From the NCBI RefSeq assembly GCF_000014265.1, contig NC_008312.1, positions 6,540,001 through 6,572,000 of the forward strand: a stretch of 32,000 nt of DNA, given 5' to 3'. A model generated the notes under the pieces. That model was not told the origin of the DNA and did no database searches. It saw nothing but the letters and a program-made list of their open reading frames with translations. Shown here piece after piece: positions 2,761 through 22,373 of the stretch; position 1 is the first letter of the stretch, and every line of letters begins with the position of its first letter. The stretch comes from Trichodesmium erythraeum IMS101. Lineage in GTDB: Bacteria > Cyanobacteriota > Cyanobacteriia > Cyanobacteriales > Microcoleaceae. A program made the translations under genes and the position numbers.

Positions 2761-2776
2761 ATAGCAATTTATAGTT

Positions 2777-6090: not shown

Positions 6091-6220
6091 CTAATTATCA
6101 ATTAAATCTCCTAATAAATCACTTATATCCCCTGTGCTTTGTTTAAATTATCATCACAAATTATCAAAGTTTTCGGGTTAGCATGATGAGAAAATCCTGA
6201 GTTTTTCTAATATTACCACT

Positions 6221-6421
6221 ATGTCGTCTTGGAAAGAGGTAGAAACTGCTTACGAGGATCTTTCCCCTCATTGGGGAGGCGAAAACCGTCGTCAACACGA
6301 ACAGCTATGGTTACCTGTGCAAGAACAAATAAAAAATTATCTAAATCGTCAAAGTCCTTCCTATACAGATTTTTTAAACTATAAATTACAAGTATTAAAG
6401 AGGTATTTAAGCGGTGGATAA
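6221..6421 (+). CDS. small helical protein with W-G-G (WXG-like) motif, hypothetical
   Basis: 66 aa with an ATG start. The stop overlaps the next start by 8 nt (GTGGATAA), suggesting translational coupling. HWGGENRRQ at aa 17-25. Confidence 0.5.
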   Translation: MSSWKEVETAYEDLSPHWGGENRRQHEQLWLPVQEQIKNYLNRQSPSYTDFLNYKLQVLKRYLSGG

Positions 6422-6659
6422 TTCTCTGAAAAATGCACTTTTATCCTATGAAACTGCCTTAAATCAGCATTTGCTGGTTCTTAAGGAAGAATTTGAGATG
6501 CTAGAAACAGCATGGCGATCGCTAAATGATGTCTATGAAGGATCAGCAGCAGAAGATTTCAAAGAAGTTTGGACAAAAACCATGGCCGATTTTGAAGATT
6601 CTGTTGGCAAGATAGAAACAATACTTTATTTTATCCGAGAAATCACTGAAAATGCCTAA
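6414..6659 (+). CDS. WXG100 (ESAT-6/EsxA)-like small helical hairpin protein, hypothetical
   Basis: 81 aa. The central VYEGSAAEDFKEVW matches the [W/Y]-x-G-x-A-x-x-x-F hairpin motif of WXG100 proteins (compare S. aureus EsxA NWEGQAFSRFEEQF). It is flanked by two ~35-aa helical stretches. The C-terminal YFIRE fits Y-x-x-x-[DE]. Confidence 0.6.
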   Translation: MDNSLKNALLSYETALNQHLLVLKEEFEMLETAWRSLNDVYEGSAAEDFKEVWTKTMADFEDSVGKIETILYFIREITENA

Positions 6660-6669
6660 TTGATTTAAT

Positions 6670-7671
6670 ATGACCATTCAAGATCCCCGTATTCTCATTA
6701 TCCTGCTCAATGACTTACTTGAAGAACTCAAACGGTGGACAATTACCACCCGTGAGACTTCAACTGATATGTCATGGTATCAAAATCAAGCAGAAGAAAA
6801 AGTTATACAAGCTCAATATAATGCTGCAATTATTCAAGATCAGGCAAGCAATGATCAAAAAGCAGTCGATCAGGCTAATGATGAAGTCGCTCAATTGTTG
6901 TCTAATTGTTATCAAGGGTTGGAAAATGCTCAACAAAATTTAAGACAAGCAGAAAACAGTGAACATCAGGCGCAATCAACCTTAAAGAATTGGCAAACTG
7001 AGTTAAATCTTGCGCTGGCTTGGTTAGAAAAAGCAGAAGCTAGATTACAATGCGCTATAGAGGAAAGAAAAAAAGCAGAAATTGATGTACGCAACGCAGA
7101 ATTAGAATTACAGAACGCACAAGTGGCCCTCAGCCTTTGCCAAAATTCTGGTTCTACTGATGATAAGGGGCGATATCATGCCCCAAATTGCTATCGTCAG
7201 GAAGCAAGAGTGATTCGAGCAAAAAATGCGTGTAAAGATGCTATTCAATCTTTAAATCAAGCCATTGAAGAAGAAGCGGGAGCAAGGGATGAATTGGCCC
7301 AAGCACAAGTAAGGGTAAATTGTTGTCGTAGTGCTGTGGGATATTCTAGACAAGCTGTTCGCACAGCAAATATTGCTTTAAATCATGCTAATTCCGCCCT
7401 CAGTTTTGCCGAACGCAGTTTAGAAAATGCTCATGCTGCCAAACGTGAAGTGGAAAGAGCACAAATTGAAGCAAAAAATGAGCAGGAAATAGCAAATTTA
7501 ATGTCTTTAGCCGTTAATACAGCGCAAAAACTGACAGAAGAAGCTAGAAGTGACTTTAAAGAAGCAGAAAACTTAGGAAACCTTGCCCAACGCCTAGAAG
7601 TAGCAGTTTCCAGAGAATTAGAGGATAGGGTAGAAAGTTTGATTGAGTTAAATCGTCCACCTTTATTTTAA
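6670..7671 (+). CDS. coiled-coil protein, hypothetical (possible LXG/WXG-type helical substrate-like protein)
   Basis: 333 aa, starting 10 nt after the previous stop. Almost entirely Q/A/E/N-rich heptad-like sequence. SWYQNQAEEK (W-x-x-x-x-A) near aa 35. Eight Cys residues. No enzymatic motif seen. Confidence 0.7.
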   Translation: MTIQDPRILIILLNDLLEELKRWTITTRETSTDMSWYQNQAEEKVIQAQYNAAIIQDQASNDQKAVDQANDEVAQLLSNCYQGLENAQQNLRQAENSEHQAQSTLKNWQTELNLALAWLEKAEARLQCAIEERKKAEIDVRNAELELQNAQVALSLCQNSGSTDDKGRYHAPNCYRQEARVIRAKNACKDAIQSLNQAIEEEAGARDELAQAQVRVNCCRSAVGYSRQAVRTANIALNHANSALSFAERSLENAHAAKREVERAQIEAKNEQEIANLMSLAVNTAQKLTEEARSDFKEAENLGNLAQRLEVAVSRELEDRVESLIELNRPPLF

Positions 7672-7692
7672 ACAATTTGGAGAGTAAAACAG

Positions 7693-8094
7693 ATGGAAAT
7701 GGGAGACACCCTTTGGAGAATGAAACAGCGATCGCGCACTTTACAAGAGTATCGTAAAGATATTCGAGGTTCGTGGCAAGATGAGGCAGCAAAAACTCTT
7801 AACCATCGTTATCTTAACCCCCACGAAGATGATGAACAGAAAATGATAGAATTTATGGAAAAACAGGTTCAAGGTTTAGAAAAAGCTAAGAATGAGTTGA
7901 AAAAGGCAAAAGAATACGCTTTAGAAGCCGATCGCTACTCCCAAAAAGTTGAACATTTCTTAGAACGAGAAAAGCAAGAAGTAAAACAAGCTAATCATTC
8001 TTATGATCTGTCTATAGAATATTATGGTTTAACTCAAGCAGAATTGCTTAATATTGACGAATTAATTCAACAAGCTAACCGCAGTTGTGGTTAA
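7693..8094 (+). CDS. small helical protein with WXG-like motif, hypothetical
   Basis: 133 aa, starting 21 nt after the previous stop. GSWQDEAAKTL at aa 26-36, followed by K/E-rich coiled coil. Confidence 0.6.
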   Translation: MEMGDTLWRMKQRSRTLQEYRKDIRGSWQDEAAKTLNHRYLNPHEDDEQKMIEFMEKQVQGLEKAKNELKKAKEYALEADRYSQKVEHFLEREKQEVKQANHSYDLSIEYYGLTQAELLNIDELIQQANRSCG

Positions 8095-8124
8095 CCCAAC
8101 TTATTGCTATATTCAAAGCTATAT

Positions 8125-8727
8125 TCAAACCCTATCAATGACCTGCTTAAAAGACTTAGAAAAGTCATCTGTAGGAACACCCACCATCAATGCCGAATCA
8201 TGCCGTAGATGAATTTCCACATCCCGTTTTCTTTCCAAAAACAGACTCGCTTCCGATAAATGACGGGGTGAGAGAAAATGAACCACCTGATTAGAGGAAC
8301 CTCGCCAACCTTTATTATCATTTAATTGCTCAATATATTGTCCGTCAATGAGAACATCTACTAAAGTCAGAATATCATCAATTGCCTGATCTGATTGACT
8401 TTGCAACTGCTGAAGAGAAAAACCCGTAAAACAAATAATTGAAATCTGACGACCCTGGCGAAGATAGATGAATAATTCCCTCAGAGCGATCGCTTGTAAC
8501 ATTGGTTCTCCTCCTGAAACCGTGACACCTTCAGTACCGGGAACCGACAAAATCATCTCAGCTAACTTTTTTGGCTCTATCAAAGTAGCTTGTGTTTGAG
8601 GTATCCATTCGGGAGAAACACAACCCTTGCAGTTAAAACAGCAACCTTGTACCCAGATCGCAAATCTTTGGCCAGGACCTAAAGTACGAGTAGCAGAACA
8701 TATTTCAGCAATATTGAGTAAAGTCAT
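8125..8727 (-). CDS. radical-SAM activating enzyme of the NrdG / anaerobic RNR-activase-like family (Fer4_12, COG0602-like), orphan
   Basis: 200 aa. N-terminal GPGQRFAIWVQGCCFNCKGCVSPEW carries the CxxxCxxC cluster motif in the NrdG-like context. VTVSGGEPMLQ is the GGEP SAM-binding motif. It is the last gene of the Hsp70 operon. Confidence 0.8.
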   Translation of the reverse strand: MTLLNIAEICSATRTLGPGQRFAIWVQGCCFNCKGCVSPEWIPQTQATLIEPKKLAEMILSVPGTEGVTVSGGEPMLQAIALRELFIYLRQGRQISIICFTGFSLQQLQSQSDQAIDDILTLVDVLIDGQYIEQLNDNKGWRGSSNQVVHFLSPRHLSEASLFLERKRDVEIHLRHDSALMVGVPTDDFSKSFKQVIDRV

Positions 8728-8819
8728 ATCAGTACCTGTACAAAATTAATTGAATATTTAGCATAAGTAGCACCAAAAGCAATTAGCATTTTTGCTTGAT
8801 TTTGTATTCCTGATTCTAA

Positions 8820-9905
8820 TTATAAAATAATAGAATTTTTCGTTTTAGCTTGTTCATTCTGACGACGAGCTTCAGCCAATTCTCCATCAATTTCTGATAA
8901 TAAATTTCGGATATTTTCCATCATTTTTTCAACTTTATTCTGGTCTATTGGTAGTAAAGTTCCTAGAGCCTTATTAGATTGATAATGGGTATTTATAATA
9001 GCTAAAGCTTCCTCAGTAGCAGTTTGATACTTTTGAAATTCAGCATTTGCCGCTTGTAATTGCTCCTGCACCGAAACATATTCTTGTTGTTGCTTTGAGA
9101 GTTGATTTCTTTGTTCTTGGAGAAGATTTAACTCTCTGGATAAAGCAGCTGATAAATCTTCTCTTTGTTGTTGAGTTATAGTTATTAATTCCTTCACAGT
9201 TTCCGTAGTTTTAATTTCTCGATTATTTTGCCGAGACTGCCAGTATTCAATCTCTTCCCTCAGAGTAGTTTGCTGATGTTCTAGAGCAGTTATTCGATCA
9301 TCCAATTCTGCCTTTTGTCTCTGTAGAGATGCTAACTTTTGCTTTTGTGGTTCTAGGTAAGCAGCTTGAGATTCGAGAGCTTCTTGTAAATTATTAATAT
9401 CCGTTTCTTTGAGTTCTATTTCTATTTTCTGTAGGTGCTTTTCTTTTTGTTTTAAGTTTTGCAATTCCTGACTTTTTTGCAGTAGTTCTGCCTCTTGGTC
9501 AAACAGAATTTTTGCTGACTCTAGTAGCTGAGATTTTTCTTGAGTAATTTTTTGAATAGATGCAAAACCATTATTAATTTTATCTCTCATTTTGGGTGGA
9601 ACTGACAACTCTTCTAAATGAGGCAACCAATTATTGAGAACTTCTAATTGTATATCCAGGGTTTTTCTCAGAGCGATCGCCCAAGCTTCCAAAGTATCTG
9701 AATCAGTATCTGCTACCTGTTGTAAGATTTCAGCAGTAAAGCACATTTTCCATAAAATTACTCCTAATTCTACCAATTCAAAAGGCAATTTAATGGTATC
9801 AAATTCCGTGAAATTTTTAGATAGCTGAAATTTCTGAATTAGTCTAATAAATCGTTGTATTTCTTGTTGCATTTCTTGTTGTTGTTCTGGTAGTAAATTC
9901 ATCAC
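8820..9905 (-). CDS. coiled-coil protein, hypothetical
   Basis: 361 aa and Q/E/L-rich with long heptad-like stretches. It lies 45 nt downstream of the Hsp70 gene and 92 nt upstream of the radical-SAM gene, all on the same strand. Confidence 0.75.
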   Translation of the reverse strand: MMNLLPEQQQEMQQEIQRFIRLIQKFQLSKNFTEFDTIKLPFELVELGVILWKMCFTAEILQQVADTDSDTLEAWAIALRKTLDIQLEVLNNWLPHLEELSVPPKMRDKINNGFASIQKITQEKSQLLESAKILFDQEAELLQKSQELQNLKQKEKHLQKIEIELKETDINNLQEALESQAAYLEPQKQKLASLQRQKAELDDRITALEHQQTTLREEIEYWQSRQNNREIKTTETVKELITITQQQREDLSAALSRELNLLQEQRNQLSKQQQEYVSVQEQLQAANAEFQKYQTATEEALAIINTHYQSNKALGTLLPIDQNKVEKMMENIRNLLSEIDGELAEARRQNEQAKTKNSIIL

Positions 9906-9950
9906 TTAATAATAGGTATAGTAGGTAAATATCAGACAAATATTATATTT

Positions 9951-11546
9951 TCAATCCTCATCAGGTTTGAGTATATAACCAGGAAACATTTTAGAAATTA
10001 TCTCACCCAACTCATATTCAATTTTGCTTTCTCCTCCTTGACTTTCGATTACTAAATAAGCTATGTGAGAGCGGTCTACCTTCATACCAACTCGATATTT
10101 TGTATTAGGAGAATAATTAGGTAACTCAATCATATCTGCCAGAGAGTTTTGATGTTTAAAACCTTTAGATTGAATTTGGACCCACAAAGTAACAGTTACT
10201 CGTCGTTCTATTGGTTCAATTTCTTTCTCATAAAAATTTGTCTCTGCCAAACTATCTAAACTAGAACCTCCTTTAATCAAAGGAATATTTATTTTATCTC
10301 TTTCTCCTGTAAGAGCAATTGTTTCTAAGATAATACCTAAAGTATGAACATATTTTTCTGTAGGCTCAACTAAACCATTAGCAATCAAACAAGCACCATA
10401 AGAGATAGCATAAGCACTATTAGTAATATTAAAACTTTGCTCAATTCGCACATCATTTCTCTCAAAACCCAAAATATTTTTAATCTCTTCTTGCACTAAA
10501 ATAAACTGAGAAAATCCACCCACCATAAATAAACGATCTATTGAATAACCTTGGATTTTAATTTGCTCAATAACTCGTTTCATAACTTTTTGAATTCCTT
10601 GAGCAATAGGAGTAAATGCTTTCTGAACCTCCTCTAAAGAAACCGAATATCCTTCACCAAATTTATAAGCTTCATCATTAGCTTTGTCTTCTGGAGCATC
10701 CAAATAATTTATGAGTCTTCTAGTAGCTTTTACATGATTAGCAATTTTAACATTTTCAAATTCTCTAAGTAAGCGAATAAACTTTGAATCATTTTCCTGA
10801 ATCTGTTCACCAAATTGTTTTTGATATGCTATTTGAACAATATTTTTATCGAAAGCAACCCCAGCAGATTCTAACCCTTTATCTCCTTCTCCATCAAAGT
10901 AGAGAACTTCAATTTTATTGTTGCTATAAATTCGACATAAACTCACATCAAATGTCCCACCTCCCATGTCGCAAACTAATAAGTTACCCTGAAAAGGATT
11001 AGTATTTTCTTCCTGAGCACGACGCTGCATTTCCCAAGCATAATAAGATGCTGCTGCTATAGGTTCGCTTACCAGTTGAATTAGTTGTTTTTCTAATCCT
11101 AAATCTTTCTTAATTAACTCCTGTAAACGTTCCCTACCGAGATTATAAATATCCCGCTGCCAAATTTCTGGCACTGAAACAACTAAACGTGAAATTTCTC
11201 CTTGTTCTTTAGTAAAACTATAGTCATTATCTGGAGAAATTAATAGTTCTTTTAAGTAATCAATAGTAACACTGATAGGAGTACGATTATTCTTAAAATA
11301 TTGATTAAATTCAGATTCTGGTAACGGCAATCGCATTTTAAATTGACCGTAAGTTTCAATCTCAGGATCGTAGACAGCAATTTTCCGAGCTGAAGACCCT
11401 ATTTCAATACCTTCTAAGTCATAGGCAATGAAAGAAGGAATATACTTTTCTCCATTTAATGGTGGATAGGAATAAGCTTCAGGTTTATCGTTAGTAATAA
11501 AAGAAATAATTGAATTAGTAGTTCCGAAATCTAAGCCAATTTTCAT
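9951..11546 (-). CDS. Hsp70-family ATPase, non-canonical (beta-type substrate domain, no helical lid)
   Basis: 531 aa. Motifs: KIGLDFGTTNS (phosphate 1), LVSEPIAAASYY, LLVCDMGGGTFDVSL (phosphate 2), MVGGFSQF (adenosine). The C-terminal ~145 aa is beta-rich (VTVTLWVQIQ, YRVGMKVDRSHIAYLVIES). There is no lid and no EEVD tail. Confidence 0.9.
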   Translation of the reverse strand: MKIGLDFGTTNSIISFITNDKPEAYSYPPLNGEKYIPSFIAYDLEGIEIGSSARKIAVYDPEIETYGQFKMRLPLPESEFNQYFKNNRTPISVTIDYLKELLISPDNDYSFTKEQGEISRLVVSVPEIWQRDIYNLGRERLQELIKKDLGLEKQLIQLVSEPIAAASYYAWEMQRRAQEENTNPFQGNLLVCDMGGGTFDVSLCRIYSNNKIEVLYFDGEGDKGLESAGVAFDKNIVQIAYQKQFGEQIQENDSKFIRLLREFENVKIANHVKATRRLINYLDAPEDKANDEAYKFGEGYSVSLEEVQKAFTPIAQGIQKVMKRVIEQIKIQGYSIDRLFMVGGFSQFILVQEEIKNILGFERNDVRIEQSFNITNSAYAISYGACLIANGLVEPTEKYVHTLGIILETIALTGERDKINIPLIKGGSSLDSLAETNFYEKEIEPIERRVTVTLWVQIQSKGFKHQNSLADMIELPNYSPNTKYRVGMKVDRSHIAYLVIESQGGESKIEYELGEIISKMFPGYILKPDED

Positions 11547-11968
11547 AATATATAAAGAAGAAAAAAGTAGGAAGAAGGAAAAAGGAAGAGAGAAAGTAAA
11601 TGAGTCTATAGAACCATATAGTTCAGTTAGGGATTTTTTTGATCGCCATTTAATCTGAAGAGCTACTCTAATGGTTCCATAATTTATGAATTTTGGTATT
11701 ACTTAGTATATAGCAATCGTCAATGATTTGTGAAAAAAAACTGTAGGGATTTGGTTATATAAATCCCATTTTCGGGCTTTTATGGAGACAAAACCCCTTT
11801 TTTATAAAATGTTACAACCTATGGACAAATTGGTATAAGACTACCTCAAGTGGCAAGATTAAAATATTATTGGTAATAGTTTCATAATTTGTATAGTAAA
11901 TATTTGGAATTTTAATTATGATATACTATTACGAGTATTATATTGACTCATAAAAAGAATTAAATAGT

Positions 11969-12832
11969 ATGGAACAATGTCCCATATGTGATACTAAATT
12001 TACGAAAGGAGAGGTTAATTATTGCGCTACTTGTGGTTGGGATTTAACTCCATATCCGATAAGTTTTGAATTACCAGAGTCTTTTGTTCAGAAGGAACGG
12101 GATAAAATTTATTGGGCTAAGAATTTATGGCAGAAAATGGAATCTCAATCAGGGCAATATAAATCCGATCTATCTCAACAACAATTTCAATTCTCTGATG
12201 CCCAATTAAAAATAGAAAATTTGGAGGCAGAAAATAGAGATTGTTTGTTTAGGATAGAAGGGTTGAATCAACAATATTCTGACTTACAAACTCGTAAAAA
12301 AGAAGTAGAAGAGCAATTAGAAAATTCCGAGAATAAATGTTCCCAACTCCAAAGTAAAATAGAAAATTTGGAGGGAGAAAAGATAGAATTTTTATCTCAA
12401 ATACAAGAGTTAAATCAACAACATTCTGACTTGCAAACTCAGAAAATAGAAGTAGATGGTCAATGTTACCAACTGCAAATTGAAATAGAAAATTTAAAGG
12501 CAGAAAATAAGGGATTGTTGTCTAAAATAGAAGGGTTAAATAAACAATACTTTGACTTACAAACTCAGAAAAAAGAAGTAGAAAATCAGTTAGATTCGTC
12601 TCATAACAAGTCTTTTAACTTGCAAACTGAAAATGAGAGACTGGAGCAAGAAAACAAAAGTTTTTTGTCTCAAGTAAAACAGTTAAATCAAGAACTATCA
12701 AATGTGAAAAATGAGTTATCTGAAAAGAAAAGAGAATTAGAAGAACTTGAACAAGAATTATTATCTTTGCGATCGCAACAACCAAGTACAAACTTAAGAG
12801 GAAAAAGAAATATATGGGATATAGAAAACTAA
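11969..12832 (+). CDS. N-terminal Zn-ribbon protein with tandem coiled-coil repeats, hypothetical
   Basis: 287 aa. CPICDTKF...CATCGWDL forms a four-Cys ribbon. It is followed by four IENLEAEN...LNQQYSDLQTQKKEVE repeat units. Confidence 0.8.
   Translation: MEQCPICDTKFTKGEVNYCATCGWDLTPYPISFELPESFVQKERDKIYWAKNLWQKMESQSGQYKSDLSQQQFQFSDAQLKIENLEAENRDCLFRIEGLNQQYSDLQTRKKEVEEQLENSENKCSQLQSKIENLEGEKIEFLSQIQELNQQHSDLQTQKIEVDGQCYQLQIEIENLKAENKGLLSKIEGLNKQYFDLQTQKKEVENQLDSSHNKSFNLQTENERLEQENKSFLSQVKQLNQELSNVKNELSEKKRELEELEQELLSLRSQQPSTNLRGKRNIWDIEN
12209..12760 (+). repeat. in-frame tandem repeats (147, 126, 147 nt units plus a diverged fourth) inside the Zn-ribbon coiled-coil gene
   Basis: Unit starts (aaa/gaa ata gaa aat ttg...) are at 12209, 12356 and 12482, and the diverged unit starts at 12629. 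Nucleotide-level similarity is clearly visible, e.g. caacaatattctgacttacaaactc / caacaacattctgacttgcaaactc / aaacaatactttgacttacaaactc. Confidence 0.85.
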
Positions 12833-12901
12833 TTACTCATTAACCTCTAGTTTCCTATTGCTATTCTCGATGAGGAAATTTATTTTGTACGACTCTAAAA
12901 A

Positions 12902-13891
12902 TTAACTCAAATCCCAATCAATTTGGATCTTTTTTCCACTTAAATAAATATCTGTACTACTTAAATCTTGTTCTCTAGCCAGTACATTTATCATTTCTAT
13001 AGTTTTTTGTAATTGCATTTCTGCTTGTCCTAAACTTTCGTTCAGTCTCTGAATTCTACGTCTATTAATCCATCGATTAAATAAATTACTTTCCAGAACC
13101 TCAAGTTGATCATCAATTTCTGTGAGTTTTTCATCCTGTATTCGTGCTTGTTCTGTCAGGATACAATATAAGACAAAAGCTACAGGAATATCAAGATTTC
13201 TAGGTTCAATTTTTCCATTATCGCTATTTTTAGCAAGCTCCTTACCTAAAGTAACTGGACAGATCATTACTAACCAATCAGAGTTAGGAGCAAACAAAGG
13301 AGGAAACATTTTTTTGACATCTTCCATTAATTCTATTTTGTTTCTATGATAACAATAGTCATACTTAGTAACAATAATAACAATTGGAAAAGTTTTTTTT
13401 CGAGCTGGTCTTCTATTGATATTCAAATATTGCAGATACTGACCCATGAGGTTAGCTTTACTTTCCATTGCAATCTTTTGCAGATTAGCCTCAGTAACTG
13501 GCTCCCTTAAATCTTTGCCTGATATACAGAAGAATAAGCCATTAGATTCAGCAGCATAATTTCTAAGTGTCCTAACGTTATCATCACTGGATATGTCTAA
13601 CATAGAACCGCCACGGTAGTCCAGCCATTCAAACTCTATTAATGATTTGTATGCGTAGCAAAGTTCAAAGTTGTAAATTTGAGGTGTATCGGTACCTCGA
13701 GGCCAACGTTCCTCACCAGATTCGCCCACGATCGTTGACCATAAAGTAGCCATTTCAACGCCTTCATCTGGATCGGTTGCCTTGAGACTGAATTTACTAC
13801 CATTTTGAATAGCTGCATACATTCCTAACATAAAGCAGGTTTTGCCTGAACTTGAATCTCCTAGCATCAAAATTTTAATTTTCTCAGACAT
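12902..13891 (-). CDS. Ras/Rab-like small GTPase domain with C-terminal coiled coil
   Basis: 329 aa. G1 is KILMLGDSSSGKT, G3-like is WLDYRGG, G4-like is IIVTKYD ([NT]KxD). The C-terminal ~100 aa is a helical coiled coil. It lies 85 nt downstream of the 344-aa ORF on the same strand. Confidence 0.75.
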   Translation of the reverse strand: MSEKIKILMLGDSSSGKTCFMLGMYAAIQNGSKFSLKATDPDEGVEMATLWSTIVGESGEERWPRGTDTPQIYNFELCYAYKSLIEFEWLDYRGGSMLDISSDDNVRTLRNYAAESNGLFFCISGKDLREPVTEANLQKIAMESKANLMGQYLQYLNINRRPARKKTFPIVIIVTKYDYCYHRNKIELMEDVKKMFPPLFAPNSDWLVMICPVTLGKELAKNSDNGKIEPRNLDIPVAFVLYCILTEQARIQDEKLTEIDDQLEVLESNLFNRWINRRRIQRLNESLGQAEMQLQKTIEMINVLAREQDLSSTDIYLSGKKIQIDWDLS

Positions 13892-13975
13892 GTTGCTCTT
13901 TCTAACTTAACTAATTGGTATATATAAATTTTAAGATCAACGATAGTTGCTTTTATTTTTGGTTTTTGAAGTCAT

Positions 13976-15010
13976 TCAATTTTTAGTTGTACTGTTCTCA
14001 AATACTCTTCCTAGATAAAAACCAATTAATATACTTATAAATATATCTAAGATATATATTTTAAAGATAAATAAGAGCATAAAAAAAAGAAAAGCTGAGA
14101 TTAATAATATCCAAGTTATATGTTTCCAGAAAATAGAATCTGATAATCTTTTTGCAAAAGTATCTATTGAATTATTATAGACATCTTTTGTGCTATTGGA
14201 ATCATCTTTAATGTCAGGTTTTAAGGAATCATTTATGACTTTTGAATTCGGTTTAACTAACTTTATAAGTTGAGTTGCGTCAGAAGTTGTAGCATTTAAA
14301 AATGGTCCTTGTAAAACATCTTGCTTTCGAGGAATACCTAGGCAAAGAGAAAGAGTTATATATTTATATGGATAATCAAAGAACTTACAACAACTTTCCC
14401 ACAAATTGTGTCTATATTCTGGTTCGTCAGGGCAAATAAAAGCTTGATTTTCTCCTTCCGAGCATGGTATAAAATTTGGGTTTATAGATTTATTTAAGAC
14501 ATTAATATAATCTCTAAATTCTGTCACATTAGAATAATTTAGTACTAACTCATACGGATATGCATGAATCTTTCCTTTAGTAAATTGGTAATCTTTTAGA
14601 TACCACAGGTTTTTTAAAGATGTTAGTAAATACTCAGACTTAAAAAATTCAAGGTCTTCTAAGCCAGGCAAAATCTTCAATGAATTAAAAGAATATTTGT
14701 TGATTCTAGCAACATAACCAACGAAAATATGGAGCGATCGCCCAGCAGCATCCTTGGCCAGATATTTATATTCTGGTTCGGAACCAATTAACTCCCTAAC
14801 CATACAAGTCACGCCGAAAATACAATGCTTATGATTCTTAAATAGAGACCAACGAGGATTCCCCCGTAACTTCTCTGCATAGACTGTAGTCCCATGAATA
14901 TATTTGCGTGCCCAATTCTTTTCTTCTATTCCAAAATCATTGGGAATGGCCAGAAAACGATAATCGGCTTCTTTGGTTCTACCGTAAACTATTACAGACC
15001 ATAAGTCCAT
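13976..15010 (-). CDS. hypothetical protein with C-terminal double transmembrane anchor
   Basis: 344 aa. The N-terminal ~290 aa is globular with no motif I recognise. The C-terminus ITWILLISAFLFFMLLFIFKIYILDIFISILIGFYLG forms two hydrophobic helices. It contains a HIP1 site at 14734. Confidence 0.65.
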   Translation of the reverse strand: MDLWSVIVYGRTKEADYRFLAIPNDFGIEEKNWARKYIHGTTVYAEKLRGNPRWSLFKNHKHCIFGVTCMVRELIGSEPEYKYLAKDAAGRSLHIFVGYVARINKYSFNSLKILPGLEDLEFFKSEYLLTSLKNLWYLKDYQFTKGKIHAYPYELVLNYSNVTEFRDYINVLNKSINPNFIPCSEGENQAFICPDEPEYRHNLWESCCKFFDYPYKYITLSLCLGIPRKQDVLQGPFLNATTSDATQLIKLVKPNSKVINDSLKPDIKDDSNSTKDVYNNSIDTFAKRLSDSIFWKHITWILLISAFLFFMLLFIFKIYILDIFISILIGFYLGRVFENSTTKN

Positions 15011-15241
15011 AAATTTATACCTCTAGCTTTGTATTTAGGGACACTAATTTATATATTATCTACTGTTTTATTGAGTTTTCAAATGAAGACCTCTTTGCCA
15101 ACTCCTCGCATACGAATAGGAATTTTCGATATATTAAATATCTCTACTATCATAATAACTGTTATAATTAACTGCAAGATTTGGAATATTTTCGTTAAAA
15201 CTGTCCATTAGACATTTCAAAAAGAATATAGAGTGTTAAAT

Positions 15242-15275
15242 TCAATATTCTACCTACATCAATATTCTACATACA
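15242..15275. promoter_or_regulatory. 17-bp direct repeat in the divergent promoter region
   Basis: tcaatattctacctaca (15242-15258) is immediately followed by tcaatattctacataca (15259-15275). This lies ~95 nt upstream of the 15370 start and ~230 nt upstream of the 15010 start. Confidence 0.3.
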
Positions 15276-15369
15276 TAAGGTATGAAAAAAGGTAGATAAT
15301 TTGGAGAGATGTCTATTGTTAAGAACCTAGAATATTACAATTATTTTAAGATAAAAAAATAAACTAATT

Positions 15370-16761
15370 ATGACAAATCGCATTCGACCTCGCTCTCGTC
15401 GTCAGAATAAACCCCAAGAAGAGCGTGATATAGCCTTAATGGTTGTACTGACTTTTTTCAACCTTGGTAGTGGTGCCACAACTATCTTGGGAGCCATGCA
15501 AATATTACCAATCAAATATTTAGCTTGGACTCTTGGCGGTGCTGTTCAACTAATGTTGTTCATCTTACAAGCAGGATTAGCGGCCAATCGTACTCCTTTA
15601 CGCAAATGGTTAGCGATTATGGTATTAGCTACCGCCAGTGTTTATACTAGCTTTTTTACTTATTATGACAAACTAGCTCAAGGAACCAATGAAAAGCGGG
15701 GTATGGATATGGCACTCAAAGCTCATAATAGATTAATTTCAGAGGTATACACGCCAATGGAAGACCATCTTCGAGATTTACAACAAGAAGCTTTAACTCT
15801 TAGAGAAACTGCCAAAGCAGAAAAAGACAGAGGTATTGACACTGGATTGATTGGTTATGGAGATCAAGCAAGGAAATTTGATAAGCTAGCTCTAGAGAAA
15901 GAGATCGAAGCTAAAAATTTTCTGAATACAGTTAATCAACTTCGCCCATTGTTTGAATACAAGAGCAGAGACCTCAAACCAGTGGATATTTTGAACAAGG
16001 ATAGAAAAGCTCTATCTTCGGCACCAGAAAACTTTCGTAATAATTATCCTGAATTAAAGCGTGGTGACTATATAGATGAAGACTTGGAATTTTCCTTACT
16101 TGCCCCATATCTTAAAGTAGTAAAGAATCAGGAGGAAGCTGCTCTCCTAGCTTTGATAATTGCAATAGGAGTAGATGGGATGGCAATTATGTTGGGAACA
16201 GCAATTGTTGTCAAGTTGATACCACCCGAAGAACGTCGCTCTCCTATTGCTATTGTTGGTAATTCTATCGCTAATTTTATTAGAGATATTAAAAAATCGT
16301 CTGCCAAAGTAGATAATGCTAGTAGAGAGTCTTTCCTAGCAGAAGACGAGGATTTGCAGGCTGCGGTAGAATATGTGACTTTGAACGTGAAAGGAAAAGG
16401 TTCAAATTTTCTCAACGATTTTTACTATGCTATCTTGGAAATAGAACCACATACTATTAATTATTCAGCACTGACGCAAAAATATAGAAATTATGATAAT
16501 ATGCAAAATCCAGTCCGAGCATTCATTGATAAGCTAAGAGAGCCAAGAAGGTTGTGGGTAATAAGAAACCAGGAAAATACTGAGTGGATGGTGCCGCCAG
16601 AACATTATCATCAACTTGTAAATTGGCTACAAAAAGAAATTAAACGCCAAAAAAGCTTAGAAGCAGAGAAAAAGATAGATTATGGTTTTGGATTTTCTGA
16701 AGAAGAAACTACTATCCAATTTCAAATGCCTAAAATGCCAGTAAATCCTAATTCTAACTGA
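15370..16761 (+). CDS. multi-pass membrane protein with central coiled coil, hypothetical
   Basis: 463 aa. Basic N-terminus (RIRPRSRRQNK). Three hydrophobic helices within aa ~20-100, a coiled-coil segment, then a fourth hydrophobic helix (AALLALIIAIGVDGMAIMLGTAIVV). Confidence 0.7.
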   Translation: MTNRIRPRSRRQNKPQEERDIALMVVLTFFNLGSGATTILGAMQILPIKYLAWTLGGAVQLMLFILQAGLAANRTPLRKWLAIMVLATASVYTSFFTYYDKLAQGTNEKRGMDMALKAHNRLISEVYTPMEDHLRDLQQEALTLRETAKAEKDRGIDTGLIGYGDQARKFDKLALEKEIEAKNFLNTVNQLRPLFEYKSRDLKPVDILNKDRKALSSAPENFRNNYPELKRGDYIDEDLEFSLLAPYLKVVKNQEEAALLALIIAIGVDGMAIMLGTAIVVKLIPPEERRSPIAIVGNSIANFIRDIKKSSAKVDNASRESFLAEDEDLQAAVEYVTLNVKGKGSNFLNDFYYAILEIEPHTINYSALTQKYRNYDNMQNPVRAFIDKLREPRRLWVIRNQENTEWMVPPEHYHQLVNWLQKEIKRQKSLEAEKKIDYGFGFSEEETTIQFQMPKMPVNPNSN

Positions 16762-16797
16762 GTTACGACTTAAGCCAAAGATGAAATAATATACCAT

Positions 16798-16837
16798 TTG
16801 TAGGTGTTGACTGCCGTTAAACCCCTACTATATATGG
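16798..16837 (+). repeat. small dispersed repeat, copy A
   Basis: ttgtaggtgttgactgccgttaaacccctactatatatgg is ~75-80% identical to 18692-18730. Confidence 0.5.
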
Positions 16838-16933
16838 TAGTTATGTTTAAGTTTTGTGAGTGTTATGTCTGATGACATCCATAATTATAGGGCTTTTGAG
16901 ATTGATAAACCACATCGCCACAACCAAAACCTT

Positions 16934-16961
16934 GTAGGGAAATTCCTAGGAATGTCCCTAC
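16934..16961 (+). repeat. GTAGGGA...TCCCTAC palindromic hairpin (Nostocales-type dispersed repeat)
   Basis: gtagggaaattcc ta ggaatgtccctac forms a 13-bp stem with one mismatch, 70 nt upstream of the 17032 start. Confidence 0.5.
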
Positions 16962-17031
16962 TGTAGTCTACTAAAATAAAAACGGCTGTAAGCGAATTTG
17001 ATATTACTCAAATAAAAAGAGGAGAAAAATT

Positions 17032-18519
17032 ATGAGCGGTGAAAAATGTAAATATGTCAGGGTTGAAGAACAAGAGTTACGAAGACTACGAGAACAAGAA
17101 AGTCGCTTACGTTCGGTACAAAATGATTTGCCCGAGCGATTGAATGCTGTAAGAGAACAAGCACGACAAGAATTTCAACAACGACTGGCACCACTGGAAA
17201 ATCGCGCTCGCCAGCAAGAACAAGAAACTCAAAAGCTCAAAAGTGGTTTAAAAGATTTGGAAAAACAAACTCAAAAACGCTTACAAAGACAACGAGAAGA
17301 ATTTCAAACTGCAGTAAAAGAATCAGAATCTCGCCAAAAGCAGGCCCTACAAAGAGAAACTAATCGTTTGGAGTCTGCCATGGCTCAAGGTTTTGAGTCA
17401 CAACGTCGCGAATATTTGCAAATTACTCAGCAACAGAGACAAGAATATATTCAGTTGCTCGAACACCAGGACACTAAATTCACTCAATTGATTGATGAGG
17501 AGCGACAAGCTCGACAGGAACAAATTAAACAGGTCGTGGCCAATATACAGGAAGAGAGAGAGCGCAAAGCACAACTTGCTACCGATATGCTAGCAGATGT
17601 AGAGACAGTTTGGGAACAAATTAATCGGGATTATCAACACGAAAGATTTGCACCAGGAAAATTAGCAGATTTGCGTCGGGGACTGGAAATGGCCAGGAGT
17701 AATATTCAGTCTGGGGTGAATGAGGCAGCGATCGCTAATGCCCAACAAACTTATTTAGACTTAGCAGATTTGCGCTTGGAGTTGGAGCAGAAAGAACAAG
17801 AGTGGCAATTACTGTATAATTCAGCCTGGGAAGATTTGCGGAGTTTAATTGCTGAAGTGCAAGCCAACCGAGAATGTGAAATTGAAGTTGGTAAAGATAG
17901 TGAGACTGAGAAGTTTAAGTTTGAAGTAGATTATTGGGTTGATGGGCGTTTGAGTAAATACGAGGAGCAACTTGCTGAATTAGAGTCGCGACTAAAAGCT
18001 GGAGAATTAACCTTAAGTACAGAACAAGTAATACAGTTAGGAGCAGAAATTACCGCTTTACAACCAACTTTAGGAGAAATTGTGGAACAGGCAAAGTTGG
18101 CAATTTTAGGTTCTCAGTTGCGAGCGGAAATTGCCGATCGCGTTGTGGAAGTTTTAGATTCTTTAGGATATACTTTGGTAAATTCTGATGATGCAGTTTA
18201 TGAAGGAGATGACGAGCGGAATGCTTATGTAGTAAAGGTGAAAAACATTGCTGGGGATGAAGTGGTAACAGTTATTAGTCCAGAAAAAGAGTTTGGAACA
18301 AATTCAGTTTCGATTAATTCTTTTAGTCAAACCTTGGTTGATGAGACAGCAACTCAGGAAAATGCTAAGGCGATTTTTGATTCTTTAGAACAGGAGAAAG
18401 TTCAGGGTGTTGGGGATGTGGAGTGCAATCAAGAAGCACGACAGGATTATTATAACATGAGAGAAGTACAGCAGCGTTCTCAAGAAGTAAAAAAAGGGGA
18501 AAGAGGAAGAAATAGTTGA
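17032..18519 (+). CDS. coiled-coil protein with C-terminal globular domain, hypothetical
   Basis: 495 aa. A GAGGAG-type RBS (agaggagaaaaatt ATG) precedes the start. The N-terminal ~330 aa is extremely Q/R/E-rich coiled coil. The C-terminal ~130 aa is mixed alpha/beta (VVEVLDSLGYTLV...AYVVKVKNIAGDEVVTVISP). Confidence 0.8.
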   Translation: MSGEKCKYVRVEEQELRRLREQESRLRSVQNDLPERLNAVREQARQEFQQRLAPLENRARQQEQETQKLKSGLKDLEKQTQKRLQRQREEFQTAVKESESRQKQALQRETNRLESAMAQGFESQRREYLQITQQQRQEYIQLLEHQDTKFTQLIDEERQARQEQIKQVVANIQEERERKAQLATDMLADVETVWEQINRDYQHERFAPGKLADLRRGLEMARSNIQSGVNEAAIANAQQTYLDLADLRLELEQKEQEWQLLYNSAWEDLRSLIAEVQANRECEIEVGKDSETEKFKFEVDYWVDGRLSKYEEQLAELESRLKAGELTLSTEQVIQLGAEITALQPTLGEIVEQAKLAILGSQLRAEIADRVVEVLDSLGYTLVNSDDAVYEGDDERNAYVVKVKNIAGDEVVTVISPEKEFGTNSVSINSFSQTLVDETATQENAKAIFDSLEQEKVQGVGDVECNQEARQDYYNMREVQQRSQEVKKGERGRNS

Positions 18520-18572
18520 GAATTACCACCCTAGTTATTGTTGATTATTCAGGACGTACACAAAATATGAAC

Positions 18573-18673
18573 AGGACTTACGAAGGCAAACTCCGCAAAC
18601 CTGGTTTTTCCTAGATATTTATGTGTTAAAAACAACGATTTACTGTAGAAACCGGTTTTTTTGCGTAAGTCCT
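18573..18673. repeat. MITE-like element bounded by inverted repeat AGGACTTACG / CGTAAGTCCT
   Basis: aggacttacg at 18573-18582 and cgtaagtcct at 18664-18673 are perfect 10-bp arms. Related gcgtaagtcctg occurs at 18739-18750 and tttttgcgtaagtc at 21593-21606. Confidence 0.45.
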
Positions 18674-18691
18674 AATGAAAATATACCCCAT

Positions 18692-18730
18692 CTGTAGGGC
18701 TTAACAGCCGTTAACCATTACTAGATATGG
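18692..18730 (+). repeat. small dispersed repeat, copy B
   Basis: ctgtagggcttaacagccgttaaccattactagatatgg matches copy A at 16798-16837. It is followed by a gtagggacgttgtatccaacctctctac hairpin-type repeat (~18763-18790). Confidence 0.5.
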
Positions 18731-18827
18731 CGCTTGGTGCGTAAGTCCTGTTATTGTTATATGTAGGGACGTTGTATCCAACCTCTCTACCCATACCCCC
18801 GCTCAATAAAATATTAAATTGTTAAAA

Positions 18828-21368
18828 ATGACTGTAGAAAGAATTACAACAGGATTAAATTTACAATTTGGCGATCGCTTCCTCATCCTCTATGGTAGTA
18901 ATACCAGCGACAGTTTTTGTACCCCCGACCTTCTATTACAAGACATTGAACAAGTATTGCATCAATATCTGCAATCTCAAAATTTTCAGAGAATTCTCTT
19001 TTATTCAGGAGTGCAAAAACTCTACTTTCTCGATCAACAATCCCGCGATCTCTGTCGCCAGCAGCCTCAAAATACAGCCCATAATTCTGCACCAGCACCA
19101 AAAATGCGAGTAAAATCTGGTCCCCTGGGGCGGAAACGTCGCTTGTTAGAGCAAGAAAAACCGACACCCACACCTGCGCCCACGAATTCAGCAACACCAA
19201 GATTACAAGATACTCAAGTTATACCAATCTGGGAAAAAGTGATGACAGATAACCAACAAAAATCAGCCATCGTTTTCTCTAACGCCGAAGACCTAGCAGA
19301 ATTTGATAATAAACGTGAGTTATTTGGGCGATTTGTGAATTGGTCTCGACTACCTCCAAGCAATCACAATATTTGTATTTTGATTTTTCACCACGAAAAC
19401 CGTTCCGAGCTACAACAGTTTTGCCAGACAATAGGATTGACATTTTTAGCTAATCTCATGGCTAATCGCGATCGCTCACATACACAATGGTTCAATTTTC
19501 ATCGTCTAAACGGACCCAATATTGGAGAAATTATCGCTCTACAAAATTATTTTCGACTAGAACATCAAAAACCTGTAGATTGGAAAAGTGTTGAATCCTT
19601 ACCAGTATATATGGCAGCAGAAAATCGCTCTTTAAATTATTGGTACGATCGCTATTTAACTTCGGAAGAAATTTCTCTAACTCAAGCACGACAGCAAAAT
19701 TGGCTCTCTGGGAATATTAGCACTCAACCAGCTTTAGAGCGATTAGAACAAATGATTGGTTTACAGACAGTTAAAGATAAAATTCGAGGGTGGATGCGCA
19801 AATTGGAAGTTGAGAGCGATCGCCAACGGCAAGGATTAACACAAGAATCACCCCGCTTACATCTAGTATTTAAGGGTAATCCCGGCACTGGCAAAACCAC
19901 TGTAGCCAGGTTAATTGGGGAAATATATCGCGACTTAGGATTACTGGCTCGAGGTCATGTGCGGGAAGTAGCACGGGGAGATTTAGTGGCAGGTTATGTG
20001 GGGCAAACTGCAATTCAAACTAATGAAGCAGTAGATGATGCTTTAGACGGAGTGCTGTTTATTGACGAAGCTTATACTTTGAGTCAAGGTGGTAATGCAG
20101 ATTTTGGTCAGGAAGCGATCGATACATTATTAAAAAGGATGGAAGATAATCGCGATCGACTAGCTGTCATTGTGGCAGGATATCCAACACCGATGGATGA
20201 GTTTATTAATTCTAATCCTGGTTTGCAGCGACGCTTGGCAACAGAAATTGTGTTTGAGGATTATACCCCAGAAGAATTGCTAACAATTTTTCGTCAGCGA
20301 GTCTCGCGGGTACAGTCTTCTATTGCGCCTCAGTTAGAAGATACTTTGAGAAAATTATTGACGCAGTTGTATGAAAGTCGCAATGAGAATTTTGGCAATG
20401 CTGGTTTAGTGGAAAATCTATTTAATAAAATGGATAATTTACGAGCATCTCGGGTAATAGAAGCAAATCTTGACCCTATTCGAGAACCGTTTCAGGTTGA
20501 AGACTTGCCACCCCAGTATCAAGCAGGTGGTAGTAAAGAGGAGAATTTAGCAGATTTGTTAGAGGAATTAGAAAATAAAATTGGTTTAAATTCCGTCAAA
20601 TCAGCAATTCGAGAGATAGTCAATAATCAGTTAGCAAACCAACAGTTGGAAGCAGCAGGGTTGCCAGCGGGTGGAACTGAGACATTACACATGATATTTT
20701 CAGGAAATCCGGGAACAGGTAAAACTACTGTAGCGCGATTAGTGGGGAAGATTTTTAAAGCTTTAGGGTTGTTGCGTCAGGGACATTTTACTGAAGTAGT
20801 TCGTAGGGATCTAGTAGCAGAATATGTTGGTCAGACCGCAATTAAAACTGCTGAAGTGGTGAAGTCTGCTTTGGATGGAGTTTTGTTTGTGGACGAAGCT
20901 TATGCTTTAACAAGGGGGAGTTCGGCAAATGATTTTGGTCCAGAGGCGATCGATACTTTAGTGCCAGCATTGGAGAATTATCGCGATCGTATGGTAGCAA
21001 TATTTGCCGGTTATTCTCGTGAAATGGAACAGTTTATAGCAGCAAATCCTGGTATAGAATCTCGCGTTGCTTACAGAATAGAATTTCCTGATTATTCTGG
21101 TAGAGAAATGCTACAAATTTTTCTGAGTATGTGTCATCGGGATCAGCGTATTTGTCCGTCGAATGTATCAGTAGTTTTAGGGAATATTTTTACATATATG
21201 TATCAAAATCGTGGTGCAAATTTTGGCAATGCTCGTGATGTTCGCAACCTTTACGAACAGATGGTAAAAAGATTAAAAAATCGGATTGTACAATATAATC
21301 TTTTGGGTGAAAAAATGCTTAAATTTACTATAGAAGATATTCCGAATAAGTATAAATTAAATAAATAG
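18828..21368 (+). CDS. tandem AAA+ ATPase of the CbbX/CfxQ-SpoVK-EccA clade with ~330-aa N-terminal domain of unknown function
   Basis: Two near-identical modules. Module 1: [13 protein letters not shown] / [10 protein letters not shown] / [27 protein letters not shown] / NPGLQRR. Module 2: [13 protein letters not shown] / [10 protein letters not shown] / [27 protein letters not shown] / NPGIESR. The ATG at 18828 is preferred over the TTG at 18819. Confidence 0.9.
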
Positions 21369-22283
21369 TAACTCTAACAGGTTTACCCGATTCTAATCCT
21401 GGGTGTAAGTATGAATAAAAGACTATAGAATTCTTAAGAAAATTAATTGACCCTATCAACAGGAGTGTAGTTTATCAATTATGTTCTGCTACCAAAAAAA
21501 ATCCATGGTTTGCCCAAAATATCCCACTAATTTTTTGTGTTCTATAGAATTAATTTGTTTAATTTATAAATTATGATGATAATTCATATAACTTTTTGCG
21601 TAAGTCTTGTTTATTATGTACCAAATATTTAATGCATTTACACTATAATTAATGTTTTTGCATAAATCATGGATATATAAATCATGGATAATATTAATAT
21701 TAAATATGTGAGACCTCATATTTCAAGTTTTGAATTTTAATGTATGTAGGTTAATTCAGACTGATTTAAAATAATCATCTAGATTTAAAAACAACTATAA
21801 TTTTAGGTAGTGAAAAAGCAAATACTGATTAAGAGTTTTTATCATTTTTGTTTTCTCATGAATACTATAGTTTTATTTCTGAAACATTAATGGTATTAAA
21901 AAAACTAAATAATCTTCTCTTATTCATAACTCCAAATACCAAAATTTCTTTGTGATCACAGGCTTATTTTATCTATAGAATAAAATTCTATAGTCTTAGC
22001 AAAGAAGTAATTACTATTAATTACCTAAACCTTAAACATAATCAAAAAGTTTTAGTTATTAACTAGAATTAAATAGATAATTAATAATATTATGATTATC
22101 TATAATTCACTATTCATATAATAATAAAATTCTGTTTTTTAATACTGTCTAGTATGGTGAATAATTAAAAGTAACTATATCTAACACCATAAATAATGTA
22201 AAAAAAAAATGACTATCTAGGGGATTAGATGACAATTCCTTGAAAGATGGTTACTCTTAATTCTTAAGTATTTTTAAAGATGT

Positions 22284-22373
22284 CTAATTATTGGCGCCAC
22301 AAATCACAGCACAAATAGGAATGATTACCACATCAATCAGAAGATGATTAACACTATGTTCTACACAGGGATC
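22284..22373 (-). pseudogene. relic of an ISAs1-family transposase N-terminus
   Basis: The minus strand translates to DPCVEHSVNHLLIDVVIIPICAVICGANN*. This matches the conserved H-x-L-x-D-I-L...ICAVISGA segment of ISAs1/H-repeat transposases. Only ~30 codons remain, with stops on both sides. Confidence 0.4.

Follow-up and report, generated by a model that had tools for sequence, protein, structure and literature searches.

The block of 13 open reading frames (ORFs) at positions 6221-21368 of the chromosomal stretch of Trichodesmium erythraeum IMS101 analysed here (32,000 nucleotides, hereafter the window) raises the question of whether its many nucleoside triphosphatases (NTPases), coiled-coil proteins and membrane proteins form one system, and what such a system would do. 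An initial annotation, made from the sequence alone, had proposed a single 13-gene island as a candidate undescribed conflict system. All 13 listed ORFs are indeed present (13/13), with matching coordinates and strands, and independent gene callers agree on them on Trichodesmium contigs; the GTPase ORF is 100% identical to Tery_4245 of the T. erythraeum IMS101 chromosome. The single island, however, did not survive the comparison with approximately 160 related loci, on which our partition rests and according to which the block is best described as a composite of two separable modules and an orphan cassette. Module I (11969-16761) comprises a GTPase, a partner with a membrane hairpin, a protein with four transmembrane (TM) segments, and a zinc-ribbon coiled-coil protein. 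Module II (8125-11546 and 17032-21368) comprises an Hsp70, an adaptor, a radical-SAM enzyme, a 495-residue protein, and a tandem AAA+ ATPase, and the four-gene cassette (6221-8094, forward strand) is found in Trichodesmium only. We consider the region 8125-21368 to be two conserved, mobile modules that most likely constitute a multi-component, NTPase-gated conflict system, a prediction to which we give a somewhat better than even chance. It would most likely be an anti-invader or abortive-infection system of the general kind predicted by Kaur et al. (Kaur, Burroughs, Iyer & Aravind, eLife 2020, PMC7159879), with hitherto undescribed cores.

Searches of PADLOC-DB v2.0, NCBIfam, and Pfam returned no model specific to either module within 6.2-21.4 kb, in keeping with the initial view that no named defence system is present. 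The PADLOC matches in this region consist of coiled-coil noise (LmuB/JetC), a generic AAA+ likeness to IetA and TRIP13, and weak matches to pVip (E 3e-4) and PDC-M61B (E 2e-4). The 344-, 463-, 495-, 361-, 333-, 133-, 81-, and 66-residue proteins matched no family in these databases. Coiled coils and hydrophobic segments were called by a crude heptad/hydropathy script, which agrees with the earlier impression of at least six proteins dominated by coiled coils (the 333-, 361-, 287-, and 495-residue proteins, the C-terminus of the GTPase, and the middle of the 463-residue protein) and two membrane proteins, as hydrophobic segments were confined to the 344- and 463-residue proteins. Transcription units were assigned from gene orientation alone. 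Of the four NTPase or cofactor-using cores initially named, the radical-SAM enzyme, the lid-less Hsp70, the tandem AAA+ ATPase, and a P-loop GTPase stood; the label "Ras-like" for the last is imprecise because its best-matching family is DO-GTPase2.

The GTPase (Tery_4245, 329 residues, 12902-13891, reverse strand) is a DO-GTPase2-like TRAFAC GTPase with a C-terminal coiled coil. Its match to PF19993 (DO-GTPase2) is borderline, with 27.2 bits against a cutoff of 27, and dozens of its homologues bear precomputed matches to PF19993, some to PF19975. The conserved motifs are G1 GxxxxGK[T], DYRGG, and TKxD, the last reading TKYD in the window copy. A scan of 185,579 species genomes with the GTPase identified 126 relatives, from which 79 loci were analysed with flanks of up to 10 kb per side, using tblastn and all-against-all ORF clustering for synteny. 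One partner family adjoins the GTPase in 74 of these 79 loci and is its sole near-universal neighbour. The GTPase-partner loci span cyanobacteria, Bacteroidales, Clostridia, Planctomycetota, Ktedonobacterales, Selenomonadaceae, and Epulopiscium. The synteny of the orthologues holds across many cyanobacteria and beyond. Whereas the window carries a single GTPase without a fused zinc ribbon, Nostocales and plasmid relatives carry two or three GTPases, and Nostocales show a doubled unit in the order GTPase-partner-GTPase-GTPase-partner. A Ser/Thr kinase lies immediately 5' of the GTPase in 39 Pleurocapsales-type loci, and another set of loci has a 400-residue Hsp70 consisting only of the nucleotide-binding domain before the unit and a dynamin pair after it.

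The partner (344 residues, 13976-15010, reverse strand, adjacent to the GTPase) has a conserved N-terminal globular domain of approximately 240 residues and a variable C-terminus, which in the window forms a hydrophobic hairpin including the segment 298-316. An alignment of the family (A2, with members such as L018 7644-8894 and L025 10962-11951) distinguishes three kinds of C-terminus: a TM hairpin, a TM segment rich in glycine and zipper-like, and a polar tail ending in a conserved GFK...DWF motif. The two partner copies of doubled systems mostly differ in this class. The family amounts to 659 representatives at E≤1e-3 among 1.84 billion sequences, and none of 40 members or 109 homologues matched Pfam, including the GAP1 models. 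Pfam thus gives no support for the partner being a GAP1 protein, although a distant homology is possible. The AlphaFold2 (AF2) model of the partner (pLDDT 78.6) has one significant neighbour in the PDB, the type VI secretion system (T6SS) regulator TagF (9t0n, E 4.7e-5), at a TM-score of 0.31, which is a fold-level hint without sequence support; a link of the TagF fold to GTPase regulation could not be confirmed from the literature searched.

Two further proteins complete Module I. The 463-residue membrane protein (15370-16761, forward strand, no family match) has N-terminal hydrophobic segments, a coiled coil, another hydrophobic segment at 257-275, and a C-terminal domain. In Trichodesmium, Okeania, an Oscillatoriales metagenome-assembled genome (MAG), and Nostoc S4, its gene and that of the partner are transcribed divergently, and the protein is also found in the loci L091 and L180. 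The 287-residue coiled-coil protein (11969-12832, forward strand) begins with a zinc ribbon, CPxC...CxxCGW, and adjoins the GTPase in 12 genome loci. The same N-terminal ribbon occurs in 32 ORFs of 108-697 residues from 26 loci, and the ribbon alone matches three genes of a Scytonema locus. Its fusion to differing proteins across the loci of both modules suggests a shared docking domain.

Turning to Module II, the best-conserved member is the NrdG-like radical-SAM enzyme (200 residues, 8125-8727, reverse strand; Fer4_12, E 2.9e-30), with 67-77% identity across Oscillatoriales and Nostocales. The motifs C29-x3-C33-x2-C36 and SGGEP are invariant, and a C-terminal extension of approximately 50 residues is conserved. 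With 94.4 bits against the TIGR02491 cutoff of 126.1, the enzyme falls below the threshold for a true NrdG, and neither an NrdD nor a PFL-like gene was found in the window or the related loci. Glycyl-radical sites follow the pattern RVxG[FWY], which the "YRVGM" of the Hsp70 does not fit, and alignments of the C-termini of the adaptor and the Hsp70 show no conserved glycine motif that could serve as an acceptor site. Using the enzyme as an anchor, we retrieved 80 metagenome loci, 45 of which are at least 8 kb long. Among these 45, the tandem AAA+ ATPase is present in 28, the Hsp70 in 23, the 495-residue family in 21, the adaptor in 16, and zinc-ribbon coiled-coil proteins in 13; their G+C content ranges from 0.32 to 0.68. 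The genes frequently form arrays on a single strand (L107/L108, L117, and L145, for example). L107/L108 read AAA+, zinc ribbon, Hsp70, one other gene, 495, adaptor, and radical SAM, all co-directional; L145 reads Hsp70, two other genes, radical SAM, 495, and AAA+, also co-directional; and L151 reads radical SAM, two 495-family genes, and AAA+.

The coiled-coil adaptor (361 residues, 8820-9905, reverse strand) has variable N-terminal helices and a conserved C-terminal coiled coil of approximately 200 residues. The equivalent slot in Nostocales is occupied by a STAND protein of 1260-1316 residues with NB-ARC and TPR domains (Pfam), and residues 160-361 of the adaptor match approximately residues 1098-1289 of the STAND protein (BLASTP; alignment A5). 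This version lies between the Hsp70 and radical-SAM genes in Tolypothrix, Brasilonema, Calothrix, and several metagenome loci. Sensor and adaptor proteins of immune systems, as known from STAND/NLR proteins, are built in this way, from a conserved tail and exchangeable heads that include a STAND NTPase. By analogy, the STAND head swapped in on the same tail leads us to infer a sensor- or adaptor-like role for this protein. The neighbouring lid-less Hsp70 (9951-11546, reverse strand) consists of a nucleotide-binding domain (residues 1 to approximately 390) and a β-rich C-terminal domain of approximately 140 residues, which by our reading of the alignment resembles the β-part of the substrate-binding domain. 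The Pfam match (82 bits) spans only profile positions 163-372 of 599, and the PDB matches are the nucleotide-binding domains of BiP and DnaK, with the helical lid missing (alignment A9). In the Hsp70s beside the NB-ARC-TPR adaptor at L021 4705-6267 and L086 15771-17330, GGGTFD is changed to GSSS[LF]N. Since this phosphate-binding motif is degenerate in the STAND-paired copies, the sequences suggest that the Hsp70 may have lost its ATPase activity where a STAND NTPase is present.

The remaining two members of Module II are encoded on the forward strand. The 495-residue coiled-coil protein (17032-18519) begins with a conserved MSGxK, contains HxRFAPG and DYW motifs, ends in an α/β domain, and is the constant neighbour of the AAA+ ATPase (alignment A6). 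Its 204 homologues are all annotated as "hypothetical" and none carries a Pfam domain; the genera include Aerosakkonema, Okeania, Stigonema, Scytonema, Nostoc, Calothrix, Limnoraphis, Arthrospira/Limnospira, Laspinema, and Halothece. Residues 190-495 were modelled by AF2 with a pLDDT of 83.5. The AAA+ ATPase (849 residues, 18819-21368) belongs to the CbbX/SpoVK/EccA clade and contains AAA and AAA_lid_6 twice each behind an N-terminal domain of approximately 300 residues of unknown type. Both Walker A/B pairs are intact, as the translation contains two copies each of GNPGTGKT and DEAY. The profile matches are TIGR02881 (508 bits over two stretches), TIGR02880, and TIGR03922 (427 bits, cutoff 467), and among solved structures CbbX (3syk, 195 bits, E 1.7e-56) and EccA1 (166 bits). 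The locus L178 of Scytonema hofmannii PCC 7110 (10001-21512) has two tandem 495-family paralogues, the AAA+ gene, two Hsp70 genes, one of them with a weak DUF8340 match, three different proteins beginning with the same zinc ribbon, and a CHAT protein 6 kb upstream.

The two modules stand side by side in at least seven arrangements: in Trichodesmium (the window and L007), in two Oscillatoriales loci (L012 and L091), in Scytonema (L018), in Tolypothrix and Brasilonema (L021/L022), in a 4.7-Mb assembly (L180), on a low-GC contig (L162), and, with the AAA+ part alone, in Anabaena cylindrica and a MAG (L014/L020). They are also mobile. The mobilizable plasmid pCAL6303.02 of Calothrix PCC 6303 (56 kb) carries both modules contiguously within 17.3 kb next to parAB, with every component except the 463-residue protein. 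Module I occurs on two more cyanobacterial plasmids, Geminocystis pGM01 and Anabaena sp. 90 pANA01. The pGM01 locus of Geminocystis sp. NIES-3708 (L186, 1451-14383) is a GTPase-partner-GTPase-GTPase-partner array with a more distant NrdG-like radical-SAM gene immediately 5', and it is neighboured by anti-phage dCTP deaminase, dGTPase, decayed UvrD-helicase, BrnT, and HigB genes; it is clearly a plasmid defence island. On pANA01, Module I lies alongside a 1889-residue CHAT protein, an Hsp70, a C39 peptidase, and dynamins. Phage and viral collections contained no homologues of the GTPase, the partner, or the 495-residue protein apart from one IMG/VR contig, and we rejected a phage origin on this basis. 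The exception (L167, IMGVR_UViG_3300019373_000210, 9992-17614) has the radical-SAM enzyme, a 495-like protein, and the tandem AAA+ ATPase, and could represent either a copy borne by a prophage or a contig wrongly classed as viral.

Recurrent neighbours of the modules are CHAT and TPR-CHAT proteases, Ser/Thr kinases, PP2C, FHA, and vWA proteins, and dynamin pairs. Toxin-antitoxin-type genes (MNT/HEPN and UPF0175/PIN-like) lie within or beside the clusters, as does Uma2, and one copy (L180) is pseudogenised. These neighbours, the toxin-antitoxin genes, the pseudogenised copy, and the exchange of the adaptor for a STAND protein are the hallmarks of conflict on which we base our reading, together with the dCTP deaminase and dGTPase beside Module I on pGM01 and the position of the window block between an anti-phage module and DNA with insertion sequences and GmrSD-like genes. 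The suggested association with defence is supported by STAND, CHAT, kinase/phosphatase, dynamin, toxin-antitoxin, and anti-phage neighbours, although a check of the flanks lent it only modest support, as described below.

A plausible mechanism can be outlined from these components. In Module I, the GTPase would act as a switch, accompanied by the four-TM protein and the zinc-ribbon coiled-coil protein, and the variable C-terminus of the partner would provide an output directed at the membrane. In Module II, the adaptor or sensor would dock through its conserved C-terminal coiled coil, with either a small helical domain or NB-ARC-TPR as its head, and act together with the lid-less Hsp70 and the NrdG-like radical-SAM enzyme, the sole clear catalytic output. 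The 495-residue protein and the tandem CbbX-type AAA+ ATPase might assemble, reset, or unfold the complex. The loci directly show the gene families, their conservation, linkage, and mobility, and the exchange of components; how the steps follow one another, what the radical-SAM enzyme acts on, an output that damages membranes, and the immune role itself are what we infer. We also put forward, tentatively and with greater doubt than the prediction of a conflict system as such, that Module II and its zinc-ribbon adaptors are a widespread, undescribed immune system, often wired to a new cyanobacterial GTPase-switch branch, in which chaperone-type ATPases gate a radical-SAM effector with a chemistry unlike that of viperin, for instance protein radical activation or a new nucleotide product.

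Several observations weigh against a conflict system. Each module often occurs alone elsewhere, as in the Okeania and Pleurocapsales loci lacking Module II, and the GTPase is present in just 4 of the 45 radical-SAM-anchored loci. No toxin, nuclease, TIR, or pore domain was recognised in the nine proteins with Pfam, NCBIfam, and PADLOC, and a fold search of the PDB with residues 190-495 of the 495-residue protein gave no match. Strong matches to defence models came from only a few of 150 flanking proteins (Cas1, CARF, RT, a C5 methylase, and PDC-S17), in a rough, uncontrolled count. Filamentous cyanobacteria are overrepresented among the hosts of these families, and a cell-biological role could explain this too. 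Finally, 13 HIP1 sites (GCGATCGC) lie within 1201-19823, with none in 19824-32000, against 0.05 expected; this density shows the Trichodesmium copy to be a long-term resident, as initially noted. Because the modules often stand alone, no toxin-type effector was recognised, and the flanks lend modest support, a membrane or cytoskeletal role has still to be considered.

The solitary modules might alternatively mean that the block is a mosaic of the kind found in defence islands, in which at least three unrelated systems (the GTPase pair; the Hsp70, adaptor, and radical-SAM enzyme; the coiled-coil protein and AAA+ ATPase; and the cassette) are functionally uncoupled cargo. The rarity of the GTPase near the radical-SAM enzyme would be in line with this, as would the GTPase pair on its own in Okeania and in the 39 Pleurocapsales loci, the combination of radical-SAM enzyme, 495-residue protein, and AAA+ ATPase without an Hsp70 in L143, L147, and L151, and the unrelated GUN4, transposase, and toxin-antitoxin pairs interspersed in Limnoraphis. 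However, adjacency in at least seven gene orders and contiguity on a 56-kb plasmid are improbable for unrelated cargo, and the co-directional Module II arrays of L107/L108 and L145 and the zinc ribbon recurring on differing proteins of both modules' loci also count against a mosaic. We therefore regard a mosaic as unlikely, and continue to favour coupled modules of a conflict system.

Somewhat less likely again, in our view, is a system with a role in cell biology or stress, chiefly in multicellular cyanobacteria, which would remodel or repair membranes or form cytoskeleton-like assemblies of coiled-coil proteins, the actin-fold Hsp70, GTPases, and dynamins. The richness in coiled coils, the dynamin pairs adjoining many GTPase loci, and the membrane-related stress functions suggested for DO-GTPases would suit such a system, in addition to the concentration in filamentous genera, the lack of a recognised toxic effector, and the long residence indicated by HIP1. 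Against a system of this kind speak the patchy distribution (126 relatives in 185,579 species genomes), the presence on three cyanobacterial plasmids, the pseudogenised copy, the shuffled gene order, and the replacement of components by STAND and CHAT proteins. Moreover, the modules also occur in the unicellular Geminocystis, in Pleurocapsales, and in non-cyanobacterial lineages.

As for the orphan cassette, its ORFs of 66, 81, 333, and 133 residues encode helical or coiled-coil proteins. No homologues were found in the approximately 160 loci (phmmer E≤1) or on plasmids, and exact copies exist solely on Trichodesmium contigs, at an unchanged position. With relatives lacking in the loci, in plasmids, and elsewhere, one 13-gene system had to be rejected, and we treat the cassette as a lineage-specific neighbour outside the system. 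Instead of the four small WXG-like helical proteins of the initial annotation, the cassette contains three small ORFs, and the WXG100 matches are below the threshold (E 0.041 with 14.6 bits and E 0.27 with 12 bits, cutoff 27.3). A type VII-like or other protein-export apparatus with these proteins as substrates, despite the EccA matches of the AAA+ ATPase (TIGR03922 and EccA1), the in-register alignment of the 81-residue ORF with WXG100 (E 0.041), the membrane proteins, the TagF fold match, and the pairing of WXG100 proteins with soluble secretion-type ATPases in CoCoNuT-associated cassettes, is highly improbable and was rejected because the window contains no FtsK/EssC/EccC ATPase, EccB/D/E membrane core, or T6SS structural genes, the WXG100 matches are far below the threshold, the TagF match has a low TM-score and no sequence support, the AAA+ ATPase is closer to CbbX than to EccA, and the cassette, missing from all related loci, is not the conserved export substrate.

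The DNA on either side of the block agrees with the initial description of a restriction-modification-like module upstream and mobile DNA downstream. The region 4-6090 encodes a DUF1156 N6-methyltransferase and a PLD-SNF2 helicase, both matching anti-phage models: the methylase matches HmaB with 272 bits, and the helicase matches PbeA, PLD_Helicase, and DrmD models as well as NF042964 (392 bits). The pair is a known type of DNA-modification defence module. Its first ORF begins at base 4 and may therefore be cut by the edge of the window, so that more components may lie upstream. Downstream, the lack of HIP1 sites after 19823 and a drop in G+C to 0.27-0.29 around 21-23 kb suggest a recent foreign insertion that begins inside or just past the 3' end of the AAA+ gene. 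This segment contains decayed insertion sequences at 24045-24639 and 26362-27535 with split or fragmented transposases. In one of them, a DDE_Tnp_4 transposase is separated from its HTH_Tnp_4 N-terminus; the others are IS630-like DDE_3 fragments. Three small, clustered paralogous ORFs (27741-28133, 30882-31466, and 31456-31917) are GmrSD_N-like. Two of them match GmrSD_N (DUF262) below the threshold (25 and 28 bits, cutoff 33), the paralogue at 30882-31466 has no Pfam match, and the C-terminal DUF1524 nuclease is missing from all three, which could be remnants or a small-protein family. Four neighbouring small ORFs (23053-23505, 24787-25068, 25065-25502, and 25477-25929) share the motif [YH]G[DQ]VFAAY, degenerate in the fourth as YADIFAAF, and match no family; they are therefore a tandemly amplified gene family of unknown type in the foreign segment. 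Rfam and tRNA scans were uninformative or empty, and a promoter/terminator scan of the window did no better than on shuffled sequence.

If our prediction is correct, there is a GTPase-switch conflict branch centred on cyanobacteria, a phylum reported to be nearly devoid of such systems, and a second, widely distributed module in which an Hsp70 is coupled to a tandem AAA+ unfoldase and a small radical-SAM enzyme, a combination present in no described defence system. Little is known of phage defence in Trichodesmium and relatives such as Arthrospira/Limnospira, Nostoc, and Scytonema, which matter both ecologically and industrially. That a common coiled-coil tail can bear either a small helical head or an NB-ARC-TPR sensor offers a direct way to study the coupling of sensing to the enzymes, and the Pfam-less families of the partner and the 495- and 463-residue proteins could be defined from the present alignments.

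Among known systems, the predicted DO-GTPase/GAP1 systems and CoCoNuT accessory cassettes come nearest to the block, in which the parts that define them are absent. The radical-SAM enzyme shares with NrdG and other glycyl-radical activases the small Fer4_12 radical-SAM fold and the CX3CX2C and GGE motifs, NrdG being its top named family, yet it differs from them in its Hsp70/AAA+ setting, its extension of approximately 50 residues, and the absence of a glycyl-radical enzyme nearby. Enzymes of the clade of CbbX, the red-type Rubisco activase, pull on protein tails, as established for CbbX. The AAA+ ATPase has its nearest solved structures and hidden Markov models among CbbX, SpoVK, and EccA and is a classic-clade AAA+ protein with AAA_lid_6 and Walker A/B motifs; unlike these proteins, it has two tandem modules and a 300-residue N-terminal domain, and its invariant partner is the 495-residue coiled-coil protein rather than Rubisco, sporulation, or ESX genes. 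The accessory cassettes of Type III CoCoNuT loci, which are add-ons to predicted McrBC-type defence operons (Bell et al., eLife 2024, PMC11090510), resemble the modules in their coiled coils, Hsp70-like proteins with nucleotide- or substrate-binding domains, tandem SpoVK-family AAA+ ATPases, zinc ribbons, vWA/PP2C/kinase (TerY-P) triad, WXG100-like small proteins, and glycine-zipper tails. However, only the C-terminal ATPase domain is intact there, whereas both are here, and those loci have no radical-SAM enzyme; membership was rejected, as the window proteins include no AAA_5/McrB GTPase, McrC/DUF2357, HEPN, or helicase core. Full-text literature searches retrieved no paper describing an Hsp70/radical-SAM/AAA+ module, and Module II appears to be undescribed.

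The predicted systems of Kaur et al. (2020) combine a DO-GTPase and GAP1 with GASH (for GAP1-N1) or FNIII (for GAP1-N2), have a paralogous GTPase pair in 38% and N-terminal zinc ribbons on the GTPase in 60% of cases, may also feature Hsp70, tubulin, or kinase/PP2C/vWA themes, and are stated by these authors to be "nearly completely absent" from cyanobacteria. The loci analysed here differ in that the partner matches no GAP1-N1, -N2, -M, or -C model, the zinc ribbon is carried by a protein of its own rather than by the GTPase, and the clade has its centre in cyanobacteria and is coupled to a radical-SAM/tandem-AAA+ module that Kaur et al. do not describe; neither GASH nor fn3 was found by Pfam in the window proteins or in the ten neighbour-cluster representatives scanned. 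What they share is a TRAFAC GTPase matching DO-GTPase2, frequent GTPase doubling, zinc ribbons, a constant and usually downstream partner with variable, often TM-bearing C-termini, Hsp70s lacking the substrate-binding domain or the lid, the kinase/PP2C/vWA association, and mobile, variable neighbourhoods. Module I, part of the block initially proposed as undescribed, is thus not without precedent in its GTPase part, which is a divergent relative of the predicted DO-GTPase conflict systems; the module has no recognisable GAP1 or GASH/FNIII but shares the logic and the GTPase family.

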